Part shown: positions 8,420 to 13,439 of the stretch, piece after piece
Layout: every line of letters starts with the position of its first letter
How positions within the stretch are numbered: the stretch's first letter is position 1
UHGV virus genome: UHGV-0092215
Strand: one strand, 5' to 3'
Source: a virus
Length of the DNA: 18,743 bases
Position numbers and translations under genes: made by a program
Notes under the pieces: generated by a model
Told to the model about the DNA's origin: nothing
The model's database searches: none
Seen by the model: only the letters and a program-made list of their open reading frames with translations

Positions 8420-9297
8420 GAACGGAACCCCGAATTTTCTGGCAGTGAGTAATCAACACTCTGGAAGTTTGCGCGGCTGGCTGAGTTAGTCTCCCATTTG
8501 CCGTTAACGCGTTCAGGCCGGCCAGCACTGGACCATTTGGTCGCGCTTTGCAGGTAACCAGGGAAGTTTTTTGGAATGAACAGAGTTGCCGGGCGGAGGT
8601 ATTGCGCCTGCTCGCTATCACGCCAATCGGCATTTTTGTAATCCACTACCAGGCACAGGTCATCAACCGTGAATTGTTCCCGAAGACGGGCGCGAATATT
8701 CTCCAGCGACGTGCTGCACACCTGGTAGCGTGAGCCAGTAGTCTGGTTCAGGTAAGACAAAACCTGTCTGGCCTGATCAGTAATCACAACCTCAGGGTCT
8801 GGTTGCGCCGCAACCGGACAAGAGGGTTTTGAAGTTACTTGTGGATCTTGTTTTGATTTTACTGACGGATCCCCGCCAGATTCTGACGGGTCAAAACCGC
8901 CGTTTTTGACGGATTTCGACGGGTCAGTTTTTGAGGCGTCAAATTTTGATGCGTCAGATTTTGATGCGTCAGATTTTGATGTGTCAGAATCTGACAGTTG
9001 AGAAAATGCGGCAGCCTGAAGTTTCGCCACATTCAGGCGGTACACGTTCGAAGCATTACGGTTACCATTACGGCGCTGTGTGCGCGTGAGCCAGCCATCT
9101 TTTTCAAGCTTTGCGATTGCCGTTCTGATAGTGCTCGGCCCTGCGCCAAGCTGGCGAGCGATAGTTTCAATTGACGGCCAGCACACACCTTCATCGCTGC
9201 TGAAGTCAGCAAGACGAGCCATGATCGCAACACTGGACAACTTCATGCCCGACGATGCGCAACCATCCCATACGTAGCCGGTTAATTTAGTGCTCAT
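8416..9297 (-). CDS. putative replication initiation protein (lambda O-like; N-terminal HTH, conserved phage C-terminal domain)
   Basis: 293 aa; N-terminal helix-turn-helix-like segment (WPSIETIARQLGAGPSTIRTAIAKLEKDGWL); central low-complexity linker encoded by tandem DNA repeats; position downstream of cro and the CII-like gene. Confidence 0.65.
   Translation of the reverse strand: MSTKLTGYVWDGCASSGMKLSSVAIMARLADFSSDEGVCWPSIETIARQLGAGPSTIRTAIAKLEKDGWLTRTQRRNGNRNASNVYRLNVAKLQAAAFSQLSDSDTSKSDASKSDASKFDASKTDPSKSVKNGGFDPSESGGDPSVKSKQDPQVTSKPSCPVAAQPDPEVVITDQARQVLSYLNQTTGSRYQVCSTSLENIRARLREQFTVDDLCLVVDYKNADWRDSEQAQYLRPATLFIPKNFPGYLQSATKWSSAGRPERVNGKWETNSASRANFQSVDYSLPENSGFRS
8851..8997. repeat. 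iteron-like tandem repeats (about 15 bp unit TTTTGATGCGTCAGA) inside the replication initiator gene; putative origin
   Basis: Three adjacent near-identical 15-mers at 8944-8988 plus several degenerate TGACGG/CGTCA-containing copies upstream; encode the SDASK-type linker. Confidence 0.55.
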
Positions 9298-9306
9298 GAT
9301 CGTCCG

Positions 9307-9633
9307 TTATCTCCCTGAACTTTTGTCTGAAATGCTCAAGTGGGCTGAAGCATTCGTGTGGATAGCCATCTCGCAGGTAGATAACGCGCTGCGTTTCTGG
9401 CTCCCAGCGGATAACACGGACTGGCACTCCGCGGTGATCTTTGAACCTTCGGTTAAGTTCGCGCACAGGCGTTTTGCCCTCCGATAGTAGACCCCCACAA
9501 TTACGGCAGCCTGGCTGTGGTTACATGACACCCAGCGATTTGATACTTTGCATTCATACCGAAACAGCGGAAGACCCGGCACCGGGATCATTCGTAGTTG
9601 CGGTAAGTGAGGATTTACGATTAAATTGCTCAT
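9307..9633 (-). CDS. questionable hypothetical protein (108 aa) between CII-like gene and replication gene
   Basis: In-frame ATG at 9631-9633 just after the CII-like stop; GGAG lies 11 nt upstream (poor spacing); odd composition; may be non-coding. Confidence 0.25.
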   Translation of the reverse strand: MSNLIVNPHLPQLRMIPVPGLPLFRYECKVSNRWVSCNHSQAAVIVGVYYRRAKRLCANLTEGSKITAECQSVLSAGSQKRSALSTCEMAIHTNASAHLSISDKSSGR

Positions 9634-9638
9634 GCGGA

Positions 9639-10190
9639 TTATTTCTCCATACTCGAAGAGTTGTTCGCCAAGGCGCCCGGAGCTGCACACTCGCGGGCGT
9701 CACTCTTTTCTGGAAGGCAATAGACTCGTGAAATCAGGTTCAGAAACGTCATAAGCGTTACCCGGAACTGGTAGGCGATTTCGTTCAGACTGTCCCACTC
9801 CCCTTTATCAACCACACCATCATCGATGTATCGACGATATGCGTTAACCAGGTCACCAAGCCTGCCCACCAGCTCAGCCAGCTTTAAACCAATCTCTTCG
9901 TTCTCTGTTTCTGGTGCCGCGCCCGGGATATGGATCCCGTTATCGGTTTGACGAGAAAACGCATCAGCTATGTAGCTAACACCAGCAGCTTTCTGTAGCA
10001 CCATCGCCCACCCCATAGGGAAGATCTGATCCCCATCCACACGAAGGCGGTTAAACAGCGCATTCTCTGTTACCCCCAACCATTCCGCCGCCTCGGCATA
10101 GCCTCCAGGCAGGTCGGTAATCGTCTTTTTAATCGCTACCACCAGCCAGGAAGGCTGACGTTCGACTTTCCAAATAGGTTCGTTACCCAC
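9639..10190 (-). CDS. CII-like phage regulatory protein (183 aa)
   Basis: GTG start at 10188-10190 with GGAG RBS 6 nt upstream, 10 nt after the cro-like stop; HTH-like segment AEWLGVTENALFNRL; family assigned mainly from position. Confidence 0.5.
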   Translation of the reverse strand: MGNEPIWKVERQPSWLVVAIKKTITDLPGGYAEAAEWLGVTENALFNRLRVDGDQIFPMGWAMVLQKAAGVSYIADAFSRQTDNGIHIPGAAPETENEEIGLKLAELVGRLGDLVNAYRRYIDDGVVDKGEWDSLNEIAYQFRVTLMTFLNLISRVYCLPEKSDARECAAPGALANNSSSMEK

Positions 10191-10200
10191 GGCTTACTCC

Positions 10201-10446
10201 TTAGTTCTGTGGTTTTGTATCTGTATTCGCACCTGTACAGTTCGAATATCGATGCGGGTAAAGAATTTCTAGCTCATTGATTTTTCCTGAAAAGAAGCTG
10301 ACTAGTCGCTCAGCTATATCCAGGGAAGCAATTTGCTGTCCTCGCTCTATCCGACTTAGATTTCCCGGGTCGATATCGACACCTTTTGCGACATATGAAA
10401 GAGTCATACCTTGCGATTTACGCAAGATTCGTAACGGTGATTGCAT
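10201..10446 (-). CDS. cro: Cro-like HTH repressor (XRE family, 81 aa)
   Basis: HTH motif MTLSYVAKGVDIDPGNLSRIERGQQ; AAGGAGG RBS 4 nt upstream of the ATG; divergent from the CI-like gene across an operator region. Confidence 0.8.
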   Translation of the reverse strand: MQSPLRILRKSQGMTLSYVAKGVDIDPGNLSRIERGQQIASLDIAERLVSFFSGKINELEILYPHRYSNCTGANTDTKPQN

Positions 10447-10543
10447 ATACCCTCCTTTAATTGCGTAATACGCATATTAATTGGAACATACGACTTGCGC
10501 AAGTTGCTTTGCACATCACGCAAAAACAACATGTAATAGGCGC
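10447..10543. promoter_or_regulatory. divergent immunity control region (OR-like operators with PR and PRM-like promoters)
   Basis: Palindromes TTGCGTAATACGCAT (10461-10475), ACTTGCGCAAGT (10493-10504) and TTGCACATCACGCAA (10509-10523); plus-strand TTGCAC-17-TGTAAT places a start at about the cI ATG; minus-strand TTGCGC-17-TAATAT serves cro. Confidence 0.6.
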
Positions 10544-11236
10544 ATGAATATTGGAAACCGCATAAGAGAACTTCGCACTGCGAAGGGCCTGAAAATCGCT
10601 GATCTTGCAGAGGCTGTCGGTGTCGACGGCGCAAATATCTCTCGCCTTGAAACCGGCAAGCAGAAGTCATTTACTGAACAATCACTTAGTAAATATGCTG
10701 AAGCTTTAGGCGTTAGTGTCGCTGAGCTATTTACTCCTAGTGGAAATGCAACTACTGTATATAAAAACAGTGTAACAGCCCCACATATTGGAGATGACTC
10801 GGTGTTTAGAGTGGAAATTCTTGATGTTAGCGCTAGCGCTGGCGGAGGCTTTATTCAAGGTAGCGACGTTATAGATGTCATCAGATCCATCGAATACAAC
10901 AACGAGCGTGCTTTATCCATGTTCGGTGGTCGGGCAGCTGAGCAAGTGAAGGTAATCAACGTTCGTGGCGATAGCATGGCAGAGACTATTGAGCCTGGCG
11001 ACCTGATTTTCGTTGATATTTCAATACATGAATTCGACGGCGATGGTATATATGTATTTGGTTTTGATGACAAAATATATGTTAAGCGTTTGCAGATGAT
11101 ACCAGACCAATTGCTAGTAATATCAGATAACCCAAAATATCGAGAGTGGTCTGTCGATAAATCGAATGAGCATCGTTTTTATGTCTACGGGAAAGTAATG
11201 ATAAGCCAATCTCAGTCATTTAAACGCCACGCCTAG
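10544..11236 (+). CDS. cI: CI-like prophage repressor (N-terminal HTH, C-terminal S24 LexA-like peptidase domain)
   Basis: 230 aa from ATG 10544; HTH LKIADLAEAVGVDGANISRLETGKQ; C-terminal GDSMAETIEPGDLIFVD...YVKRL typical of S24 self-cleaving repressors. Confidence 0.9.
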   Translation: MNIGNRIRELRTAKGLKIADLAEAVGVDGANISRLETGKQKSFTEQSLSKYAEALGVSVAELFTPSGNATTVYKNSVTAPHIGDDSVFRVEILDVSASAGGGFIQGSDVIDVIRSIEYNNERALSMFGGRAAEQVKVINVRGDSMAETIEPGDLIFVDISIHEFDGDGIYVFGFDDKIYVKRLQMIPDQLLVISDNPKYREWSVDKSNEHRFYVYGKVMISQSQSFKRHA

Positions 11237-11254
11237 TCTATATATCCTTTCAGA

Positions 11255-11279
11255 AACCGCCAGTCAGGCGGTTTTTTTT
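11255..11279 (+). terminator. intrinsic terminator downstream of cI
   Basis: AACCGCC-AGTCA-GGCGGTT followed by a run of 8 T. Confidence 0.75.
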
Positions 11280-11290
11280 CGCCATGACAA

Positions 11291-11328
11291 TTGCATTTTA
11301 CGCAATTTATTACTTGCGCAATACGCAA
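11291..11328. promoter_or_regulatory. OL-like operator pair with candidate early-left promoter
   Basis: TTGCATTTTACGCAA (11291-11305) and TTGCGCAATACGCAA (11314-11328) share the TTGCR-N5-CGCAA pattern of the sites between cro and cI; TTGCGC-17-TATCGT is a weak promoter candidate. Confidence 0.45.
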
Positions 11329-11452
11329 TTTAGATTTATCGTTATTCACATCAACAGCGAACAGGCAGGACGCCCACGAAGTAGCCGCCGGTGGCGTATG
11401 AATGACCGGATGATTCGCTGACAGAAAACTAAGGTTAGGGGCAGAGGTTTAC

Positions 11453-11818
11453 ATGAATCATTTATTCACATGCTCATTTTGTGGAGCAACCGAACTGGTA
11501 GCGATGAAGATCGTCGCAAAAGGTGGTAAGGACGAACCTGCTATCTGTTCGGAATGCGTAGTCACATGTGTAGAAAAAATGATCCTGACTAAAAAATCAG
11601 AGGCTGAAAAACCAACCCCTGATAACGAAATAATATCAGTCGATAAAAAACTATTTAAAGAGCTTCTTCAGCTTGTCCTCAACCTTCCTGATTTCGGAAG
11701 TAAGCTGGCTGCTGTTGACATTGATAGTGGCTCCACATCGACAAGTGAAACTTTTGTTCGACTTGAGCCAAGCGATTTTCTTCTTCGTCTTAGCGCCGCA
11801 CTTAGGGCATGCGGGTAA
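11453..11818 (+). CDS. small protein with ClpX-type N-terminal C4 zinc-binding domain (121 aa), first gene of the early-left operon
   Basis: ATG 11453 with GAGG RBS 5 nt upstream; CSFCGATELVAMKIVAKGGKDEPAICSECVVTCVEKMI resembles the ClpX N-terminal zinc-binding domain (CSFCGK...KLIAG...YICDECVDLC); C-terminal 75 aa unassigned and overlapped by an antisense ORF. Confidence 0.55.
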   Translation: MNHLFTCSFCGATELVAMKIVAKGGKDEPAICSECVVTCVEKMILTKKSEAEKPTPDNEIISVDKKLFKELLQLVLNLPDFGSKLAAVDIDSGSTSTSETFVRLEPSDFLLRLSAALRACG

Positions 11819-11941
11819 CGTAATTTCCTGGTTATCAAAAGCGCCCATAAACATCCCTCTTGGTTGTGTGAGAACACCAAGATACCACCGCGCCTGATGT
11901 GGTTAAAAGCAGGCCAAAGCAATAACAAGTAACTCCCTGTT

Positions 11942-11990
11942 CTGGCGGCCCGGTGTTTTCCCACTTGTCCGGTAACCGCCAGCCTTTTTC
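11942..11990 (+). terminator. terminator-like hairpin with T-run after the ClpX-zinc-finger-like gene
   Basis: CTGGCGG (11942-11948) pairs with CCGCCAG (11976-11982), then CCTTTTTC; the 27 nt loop is long for a canonical terminator. Confidence 0.4.
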
Positions 11991-12285
11991 AGGGCGCAAC
12001 GACGAGAGCATTGACGAGCAAGGCATAACGGCAGGTTCAATCCCTGCCACCGCTATACAGATGGCGGTGATGGGCAACGAAAAGGTCCGTTCAATTCGGA
12101 CACCGGCAGTGCTCTCTTCGTTGTGGTGAATGCGCAGGCTGATGCGCTAAACCGTGAGGGAGTGTCCCGAAAGGGTGCGTCACTGGTAATCAACCCATGC
12201 CGGAATATCGCAGCACCGGCCACCACAACCAAATCACGCTTAGGACCGTGATAACCGTAGTTCCAGTATTGCTGTGTGTAGTCTT

Positions 12286-12356
12286 GGCGGTACCAGGGTC
12301 TTCAACCTTATGCAAGGGGGCCGAAGATAATGTTCTACCTCGGTACCGCCCTTTTT
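12286..12356 (+). terminator. second terminator-like long hairpin with T-run in the ORF-free region
   Basis: GGCGGTACC (12286-12294) pairs with GGTACCGCC (12342-12350), followed by CTTTTTA. Confidence 0.35.
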
Positions 12357-12521
12357 ACGCAACAGAAAAGGGCATCACCGGGCGACGGGCTCATAACCCA
12401 ATCCACCCGGGCAAAAAGAAAGCGGTCTCTGCAAGCCGCCGACCAATGCAGGTGCCCTTCTCTGTTGTGTATGGAGAAACTAACTTTTTAGCGCCGGTGC
12501 AGAGGCGTTGAGGAACCGAGA

Positions 12522-13439
12522 ATGAACAATCCGTTTTTCAAAAATATGTTGGTGTATCGCCTTAGTCGCGATTTCACCATCAACCAGGAAGAGCTGGAAC
12601 AGCAGCTTGAACTATTTCGCTTCACTCCATGCGGTAGCCAGGATATGGCAAAAACCGGTTGGGTATCACCACTTGGTCAGCTGTCAGATCGCTTGCATCA
12701 CACTGTCAATAATCAAGTGTTGTTGGTTATTCGCCGGGAAGAAAAAATACTGCCATCTCCTGTCATTGCTGAAGAACTGCGCAAGCGTGTGTCGCGTCTG
12801 GAATCCGATCAGGGGCGTCGCCTCAAAAAAACTGAGAAAGATTCGCTGCGTGATGAAGTGTTGCACTCCCTGCTTCCTCGGGCGTTCTCCAAAAACTCGA
12901 CTGTTAGTTTGTGGATCAACGTCACCGACGGTCTGATCATGGTTGATGCAGCCAGCGCTAAACGTGCCGAAGACTCACTGGCCCTGCTTCGTAAAACTCT
13001 CGGTTCTCTCCCGGTGGTACCGCTGACTATGGAAACGCCGATCGAACTAACTATGACCGAATGGGTTCGTTCCGGTAGTGCGCCTGCTGGCTTTGGCCTG
13101 GGTGATGAAGCCGAGCTGAAAGCTATTCTTGAAGATGGCGGTATTGGACGCTTTAAAAAACAGACTCTGGTCAGTGACGAAATTCATGTGCATCTGGAAG
13201 CTGGCAAAGTAGTTACAAAGCTGTCTATCGACTGGCAACAGCGCATTCAGTTCGTTCTTTGCGATGACGGCAGCATCAAACGCCTTAAGTTCTCTAATGA
13301 GATTACTGAACAAAACGACGATATCGACCGTGAGGATGCGGCTCAGCGGTTCGACGCTGACTTTGTTCTAATGACCGGCGAGCTTATCTCTCTCATTAAC
13401 GGATTAACGACCTCTCTCGGCGGCGAAGCCAAGCGATAA
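12522..13439 (+). CDS. rdgC: recombination-associated protein RdgC homolog (phage-encoded)
   Basis: 305 aa; long collinear similarity to E. coli RdgC as I recall it ([81 protein letters not shown]); GAGG RBS. Confidence 0.9.

Follow-up and report, generated by a model that had tools for sequence, protein, structure and literature searches.

A zinc-ribbon gene nested antisense in the tail of the first early-left gene of a lambdoid prophage: a probable case of dual coding

Results

Genes and operators of the immunity region

The stretch of DNA that was analyzed, UHGV virus genome UHGV-0092215 (18,743 nucleotides, hereafter the window), has the immunity region of a lambdoid prophage as its context, and the features discussed below are collected in Table 1. 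Genes resembling cII and cro lie on the minus strand and a cI-type repressor on the plus strand. The start of the repressor was set at an in-frame ATG, the listed ORF opening at TTG 10481, and its copy in Escherichia coli Nissle 1917 bears the PGAP name LexA family regulator. Past cI, the operator palindrome TTGCnnnnTACGCAA occurs twice, at 11291-11305 and 11314-11328; it is also present between cro and cI, and the D1/D2 and I3/I4 repeats found at the left operators recur in the operators there, at 10411-10425 and 10457-10479. A first-pass annotation, made from the sequence alone, had placed a 121-aa plus-strand ORF in the first early-left (pL) position, and this placement is borne out: the S24/helix-turn-helix repressor, a hairpin and the two operator palindromes precede 11453-11818, which makes the ORF the first gene after the left operators. 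The locus had also been called AT-rich, which holds as well, with a GC content of 0.41-0.45 against 0.50-0.55 on either side. The next gene, encoding RdgC, begins at 12522, beyond a gap without a credible ORF.

Over bases 11400-11900, the window and a prophage of E. coli Nissle 1917 share 97.8% identity, and 39 of 5,426 complete E. coli genomes have a match to this segment. A protection phenotype of a Nissle 1917 "phage repressor" (PMC5987069) was considered as a possible link to this locus; two of the primers (one for qPCR and one for cloning) are unmatched in the window, so the phenotype appears to concern another gene.

Table 1. Positions of genes and sequence elements in the window
Feature	Position	Strand	Details
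cII-like gene	9639-10190	-	
cro-like gene	10201-10446	-	
cI-type repressor (HTH + S24 peptidase)	10544-11236	+	Pfam Peptidase_S24 7.2e-20, HTH_3 5e-12
Terminator-like hairpin and T run 3' of cI	~11254-11279	+	aaaccgccagtcaggcggtttttttt, read off the sequence
Two left operators over candidate pL	11291-11328	.	TTGCATTTTACGCAA, TTGCGCAATACGCAA; repeat families D1/D2, inverted pairs I3/I4
121-aa ORF, first gene downstream of oL	11453-11818	+	ATG start; GAGG at 11444-11447
ClpX-type C4 zinc finger, residues 6-41	11468-11575	+	Cys 7, 10, 32, 35; PF06689
Intrinsic-terminator-like hairpin	11590-11623	-	12-pair stem and T run; inside plus-strand codons 47-58
C-terminal module of plus-strand protein, E59-G121	11627-11815	+	Last 54 codons codon-aligned antisense to the minus-strand gene
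65-aa zinc-ribbon gene (CPKC...CRC) with C-terminal helix	11651-11848	-	Alternative start 11854, giving 67 aa
Conserved leader of minus-strand gene	11855-11935	-	Extended -10-like TGgTATCTT (11887-11879), TCACACAACCAA, SD AGAGGG (11860-11855)
360-nt insertion relative to Nissle 1917 prophage	11997-12357	.	Pairwise alignment; in the gap, separate from the pair

A ClpX-type zinc finger at the head of the plus-strand protein

The plus-strand ORF has the extent, ATG start and 121 codons that had been described for it. Its copy in Nissle 1917 is annotated by PGAP as "ClpX C4-type zinc finger protein" (WP_016240143.1), and phrog_20296 covers the protein over its full length. The proposed likeness of the N terminus to the C4 domain of ClpX is confirmed at the profile level, as zf-C4_ClpX (PF06689) matches residues 6-41 over profile positions 2-35 of 39 with an E value of 1.3e-6 and 28.6 bits, a narrow margin over the gathering cutoff of 27, and phrog_5259 matches the head at 1.8e-19. 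A PDB sequence search with the protein returned ClpX zinc-binding domains as its sole matches, weakly (E ~0.1), with 2ds5 and 1ovx at the top, and C7, C10, C32 and C35, which form two CxxC pairs, align to the ClpX ligands in these structures. The four cysteines are kept in the related proteins P0012 and P0013, and Salmonella phages F1055 and 118970_sal3 have standalone homologues of the head, 57-66 aa long, at this same position. The zinc-finger head is, by these sequence comparisons, a real module; its AlphaFold2 (AF2) model attained a pLDDT of only 57-66.

The AAA+ body of the ClpX unfoldase is absent: TIGR00382 and PRK05342 score 14.6-20.9 bits against cutoffs of 359-371 and align to only the first ~50-70 of the 121 residues. 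For the plus-strand protein, Pfam, PHROG and NCBIfam held no match to a lambda N-type antiterminator, which is what lambda encodes in this place, and its sequence has no arginine-rich stretch of the kind present in lambda N. PADLOC defense models matched neither of the two proteins encoded at the locus at E<=0.01, and a literature search on standalone phage ClpX fingers found nothing relevant. In ClpX itself, the zinc-binding domain dimerizes and docks SspB and substrates, and by analogy a role of the head as a ClpXP decoy or adaptor is possible. Such a role cannot explain the C-terminal module, which is also borne by AlpA, coiled-coil and other heads. The description of the 121-aa protein in the first-pass annotation stands for the ClpX-type head, while the C-terminal half, which it had missed, is the mirror of the minus-strand gene and not an independent domain.

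A conserved zinc-ribbon gene on the minus strand

The antisense ORF is likewise as described, spanning 11651-11854, or 11651-11848 when read from the second ATG, and the ribosome-binding site attributed to it is present: AGAGGG abuts the first ATG and lies 6 nt ahead of the second, which aligns with the start used by all relatives. Its presence across relatives had been suggested as a check, and the ORF is intact in every one of them, with start, stop and all four cysteines unchanged. The minus frame has fewer amino acid differences than the plus frame in 21 of 21 pairwise comparisons, made among the first seven distinct sequences, and the variable columns at plus-strand codon positions 1, 2 and 3 number 30/9/19, with most change at the minus-strand third position. 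Purifying selection on the minus frame (dNN/dNS 0.24, 0.15-0.34) is within the range of real genes.

A phmmer search of 1.84 billion representatives with the minus-strand protein recovered 333 clusters at E<=1e-3, almost all of them 62-76 aa long and aligned end to end, while a word-index search with the same protein returned a single called cluster because gene callers retain the longer plus-strand ORF. Distant members of the family stand alone, and one of them (L050) is without a possible plus-strand partner; the zinc-ribbon gene is therefore ancestral. AF2 modeled the protein with a mean pLDDT of 78.2 as a zinc ribbon with a helix (residues 48-66) behind it. Judged from its conservation, its family of ~333 clusters and its confidently predicted fold, the minus-strand ORF is certainly a gene. 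The first-pass annotation had left open whether one or both ORFs are real, and its question can be answered in part: the minus-strand ORF and the plus-strand head are, whereas the selection statistic of the plus-strand tail lies within the control range (see below).

As to function, searches of Pfam, NCBIfam, PHROGs, PADLOC and the PDB sequences gave sub-threshold or generic zinc-ribbon matches. The protein falls below every gathering threshold, the best match being Lar (PF14354; 18.7 bits versus 28.6), and it scores 17.7 against a cutoff of 36 with the NCBIfam model of YnfU; some distant family members reach E ~1e-5 to YnfU (PF23499), DUF7836 (PF25206) and Lar (PF14354). Foldseek searches of PDB and BFVD returned generic zinc ribbons alone. 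No conserved partner gene emerged for the wider family, as the five contexts that were compared lack a common neighbor. A convergent 83-aa ORF in Salmonella phage F1055 was considered as a zinc-ribbon homologue and ruled out, as tblastn gave no match.

The zinc-ribbon gene seems to be habitually oriented against the operon around it. Members lie antisense in late operons, between tape-measure and tail-chaperone genes (4001-4210 in L104/L105), and antisense behind lysis genes (583-861 in L014, and in L038).

Leader, putative terminator, and interchangeable cargo

The ~75 nt upstream of the minus-strand gene are nearly invariant among relatives, with a core of GGTGGTATCTTGG...TCACACAACCAA and the SD sequence. 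We infer promoter activity of this leader from its conservation only; a consensus promoter scan did not call the extended -10-like motif. A predicted leader hairpin (UCUUGG...CCAAGA) would partly cover the SD sequence and is without covariation support because its stem never varies. When the leader pattern was scanned for, it was found in 40 viral contigs, only 8 of which carry the zinc-ribbon gene; the remaining 32 have at least 11 unrelated small ORFs as cargo, which brings the tally over all 40 to at least 12 different small ORFs. One leader thus stands before many unrelated, interchangeable cargos, as a common module for expression or recombination. It resembles a shared promoter/5'UTR or a recombination linker for the swapping of accessory genes. 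On the far side of the zinc-ribbon gene, 28 nt past its stop, lies a terminator-like hairpin (11623-11596). The related L004 and L016 clades retain it, its two arms having changed together, and other clades lack it.

The plus-strand tail recurs on many heads

The last ~63-65 residues of the plus-strand protein recur on proteins with quite different heads, namely an AlpA helix-turn-helix (P0004 and P0010), a phrog_1744 head (P0006, P0007 and P0009), a PF27050/phrog_1273 head (P0008) and short leaders (P0005 and P0011). In the lambdoid cases, the module protein is always the first gene past the repressor, with a gene-free gap behind it; one group has it in the late region, behind a lysis gene. 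In this late-operon variant, the ORF is preceded by its own strong SD sequence, GAGGGGGG.

Comparative evidence on the plus-strand tail

From the comparative data, the same 165 bases appear to encode two proteins, one per strand. The tail is a codon-aligned mirror of the minus-strand gene, and much of its conservation is therefore automatic. An open codon-aligned antisense frame arises by chance in 27.6% of 55-codon windows of control genes (17-30% per sequence), so that such a frame is unremarkable in one sequence and the signal is the comparison between relatives. We examined ~40 loci that had been found via the minus-strand protein or the leader, both of which are blind to the plus frame. 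In every intact enterobacterial locus with the minus-strand gene, the plus frame is open end to end and runs upstream to a start codon through at least eight different heads, four of which are recognized families. In every intact locus it also stops at the same codon, TAA or TAG, the complement of the Leu codon TTA or CTA of ELPACP, and the change from TAA to TAG keeps the stop. The exceptions to paired intact ORFs are L061, which is damaged in both frames, and L062, which is truncated. Behind the leader, the antisense frames of other cargos are closed, with two partial exceptions.

Codon usage in the minus-strand gene bears on the same point. The codons TTA, CTA and TCA, which make stops in the plus frame, account for 0 of 110 Leu/Ser codons, compared with 17.6% (Leu) and 18.5% (Ser) in neighboring genes, which gives P ~0.0025 over 30 distinct codon states, an approximate value that assumes independence. 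Conserved Lys and Glu codons have a pairwise third-position difference of 0.093 versus 0.27-0.36 in controls of similar divergence, and they end in G (AAG 74% and GAG 93%, versus 39% and 36%), which preserves Leu, and not Phe, in the plus-strand protein. Just before the overlap, outside the minus-strand ORF, eight plus-strand codons differ by position in the ratio 192:196:472 (pN/pS 0.34) and retain I-x-[IV]-D-K through wobble changes; upstream of them, the heads bear no relation to one another.

Changes that are synonymous in the minus frame and alter the plus frame occur at 0.26 and 0.35 in the two flanks of the overlap versus 0.83 in its middle (permutation p<0.0002), and doubly synonymous sites, of which there are ~2 per sequence pair, change at 0.55 and 0.84 in the two flanks; the two classes of singly synonymous change have equal values in the 3' flank (0.345 and 0.328). 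Such region-specific constraint fits a plus-strand tail of two constrained helices and a free loop, as drawn by AF2, whose model of the plus-strand protein, from a 12-sequence alignment, has a pLDDT of 54.7 overall and 41-65 in the tail.

The synonymous-constraint analysis that the first-pass annotation had proposed gives a clear answer for the minus frame and a mixed one for the plus frame. Inside the overlap, an OLGenie-style estimate for the plus frame (dNN/dSN 0.47, bootstrap 0.30-0.71) falls within the 0.37-1.04 spanned by the fake antisense frames of 12 ordinary genes. Taken without these controls, the test had seemed significant for both frames. RdgC, the first control, was too saturated for this test. 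The ORF family at 9111-9437 on the minus strand, also a control, is itself like a noncoding shadow frame, with differences concentrated at codon position 2 and a dNN/dNS of 0.79. The most variable stretch of the plus-strand tail mirrors the most conserved residues of the minus-strand protein, and tail conservation is largely a by-product of minus-strand conservation. These selection statistics rest on ~14 distinct sequences in ~5 clades, and the head-swapping events may share history and not be independent. A metagenome scan for further diversity yielded near-identical or damaged copies only. Of the two exceptional loci, in L061 both frames are disrupted together by the loss of 1 nt, and L062 ends after the second Cys pair; they may be assembly errors or decaying copies.

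The gap before rdgC

From the plus-strand stop to rdgC, positions 11819-12521, ~700 bases are without a credible ORF, so transcripts from pL would cross them untranslated, and relatives have a similarly gene-free gap of 350-1000 nt. Early-left transcription could reach rdgC by antitermination or from a second promoter. Two hairpins resembling tRNA T arms, GGCAGGTTCAATCCCTGCC and GTCCGTTCAATTCGGAC, are contained in the 360-nt insertion within the gap. Copies of its first ~150 nt, 80-95% identical, are present in more than 100 records of temperate enterobacterial phages, almost always unannotated, and in SPC32H the element adjoins tRNA-Arg. An Rfam search of the locus and the gap found no structured RNA at either the gathering threshold or E<=1, and ARAGORN called no tRNA there. 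The insertion could be what is left of a tRNA, or else a small element with a mobile or regulatory role. In Salmonella phage F1055 (L002, 2523-3095), an ORF of 190 aa that is annotated as "hypothetical protein" and lies on the other strand from the early-left genes runs into the start of the recombination-associated (RdgC-type) gene and covers the recurrent noncoding element; it is probably an annotation artifact.

Discussion

Our comparisons point, with moderate confidence, to a convergent nested pair, in which one gene would lie wholly within the other on the opposite strand. The minus strand would carry the ancestral partner, an old and widespread 65-aa zinc-ribbon gene that forms an independent unit with a leader, an SD sequence and a putative terminator of its own and that sits antisense in the early-left operon. 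The plus strand would carry the first pL gene, with its ClpX-type head and with residues 59-121 read codon-aligned off the antisense strand of the zinc-ribbon gene. Its tail would have arisen by overprinting in enterobacterial temperate phages, and it appears to travel with the cassette and to be joined in frame to many heads. If the tail is translated and under selection, this is true antisense dual coding, which we consider fairly probable.

The geometry of the locus further suggests how the two genes might alternate. In a lysogen, cI would shut pL and only the minus-strand gene would be expressed; on induction, transcription from pL would cross the cassette head-on and produce RNA fully complementary to the minus-strand mRNA, so expression of the two products should be separated in time, the antisense RNA from pL turning off the minus-strand protein as the plus-strand protein is made. 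An extension of this idea, which we regard as conceivable though on the unlikely side, is that the de novo overprinted tail is coupled to the zinc-ribbon moron as a lysogeny/lysis toggle on one stretch of DNA. The zinc-ribbon protein would then work in the lysogen and be silenced upon induction by collision with pL transcription and by antisense pairing, the mirror protein would replace or neutralize it, and the many heads (ClpX finger, AlpA, coiled coils) would be a way to get the module translated and targeted.

The nested pair has to be weighed against the view that only the minus-strand gene is functional in the overlap, the real plus-strand product being the ~50-aa head and its last 60-70 residues a tolerated read-through, or shadow ORF. 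The frequency with which codon-aligned antisense frames are open by chance (17-30% per sequence), the stronger conservation of the minus frame, a dNN/dSN no lower than in controls, the poor predicted fold of the tail and the existence of standalone heads without it all speak for this view. It would nevertheless require at least eight head types each to lose a stop and join one open frame, a chance of ~(1/3)^4 for the four recognizable ones, and it leaves unexplained the lack of any stop-making codon among 30 codon states, the conserved plus-strand stop, the coding-type variation in the eight codons outside the minus-strand ORF, the frozen G-ending Lys and Glu codons, and the fast doubly synonymous sites beside slow minus-synonymous ones. 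On balance we think a shadow ORF rather unlikely. A further possibility is that translation across the cassette is needed and the amino acid sequence irrelevant, with ribosomes protecting the pL transcript, as it crosses the antisense gene, against Rho-dependent termination or against pairing with the minus-strand RNA; an open frame, in-frame joins and stop avoidance would then all follow without a folded domain. We find this improbable, as amino acid conservation of I-x-[IV]-D-K under wobble variation and the preference for Leu over Phe that the G-ending codons maintain would have no explanation, and the stop at 11818 would still leave ~700 untranslated bases up to rdgC.

The converse possibility, that only the plus-strand ORF is a gene and the antisense zinc-ribbon ORF a chance shadow, agrees with what gene callers and PGAP annotate and with the one called cluster that the word-index search gave for the minus-strand protein. 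It runs against the 333 clusters of standalone homologues, some of them without a plus-strand partner, against four cysteines that are invariant even where the plus-strand protein varies freely, against the confident predicted fold, and against the SD sequence, leader and terminator that the minus-strand ORF has to itself. As far as sequence evidence reaches, the family search refutes it, and we give it hardly any credence.

Long antisense dual-coding overlaps in bacteria and phages are still held to be rare and doubtful, and most of those proposed are based on expression, without evolutionary support. This locus is the reverse, offering comparative evidence over several clades with clean natural controls. 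Our literature search found no description of this antisense pair or of the zinc-ribbon family. The novelty lies in an old gene that is nested complete in the tail of a second one, in support for an antisense pair that is comparative and not expression-based, in an overprinted tail with the behavior of a portable module, and in a systematic misannotation by which it is the conserved gene that gets lost. Annotation pipelines in this clade retain the longer ORF and lose the older, conserved gene, and the "C-terminal domain" of phrog_20296 that proteins with AlpA, ClpX-finger and other heads have in common mirrors the dropped zinc-ribbon gene. If the coupling to the lysis-lysogeny state is true, the pair would represent a compact regulatory design. 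The locus is present in a prophage of E. coli Nissle 1917 and in the 39 complete genomes mentioned above and is so experimentally accessible; separation-of-function alleles are possible, as the start and SD sequence of the minus-strand gene lie outside the plus-strand ORF and a stop can be put into the latter without altering the protein encoded by the former.

The plus-strand head shares with the ClpX zinc-binding domain (PF06689; 1OVX, 2DS5) the CxxC...CxxC arrangement and its flanking residues, L-x-C-S-F-C-G...K-[IL]-[VI]-A...I-C-x-E-C-V. In contrast to ClpX, the plus-strand protein has no AAA+ ATPase body, carries a 3-residue insertion between the Cys pairs, and is a phage early protein bearing an unrelated tail. 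The minus-strand protein is similar to YnfU, DUF7836 and Lar in size and in its two CxxC-type knuckles, but remains under their gathering thresholds.

The minus-strand gene recalls the morons of prophages, accessory genes with transcription of their own such as lambda bor and lom, in being a small cargo gene with its own leader and putative terminator inside a phage operon, and its leader carries interchangeable cargos; unlike them, it is opposed to the operon and overlapped end to end by an operon gene. Lambda Rz1 is embedded in Rz on the same strand in another frame, and the two are co-expressed. As in Rz/Rz1, a complete small gene lies within another in a temperate phage and both are kept, whereas the partners here are on opposite strands in a codon-aligned frame, which probably puts their expression at separate times.

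Antisense overlapping genes, such as those studied experimentally in E. coli O157:H7, are a known, contested kind (PMC9927249; bioRxiv 10.1101/2020.11.18.388249). The pair described here resembles the O157:H7 cases in that a coding ORF is embedded antisense in a coding ORF and that pipelines routinely discard one partner. It differs from them in that the discarded partner is the older and better-conserved gene, that its support comes from cross-clade sequence comparison and not from ribosome profiling, and that the overprinted part appears as a portable C-terminal module on many heads.
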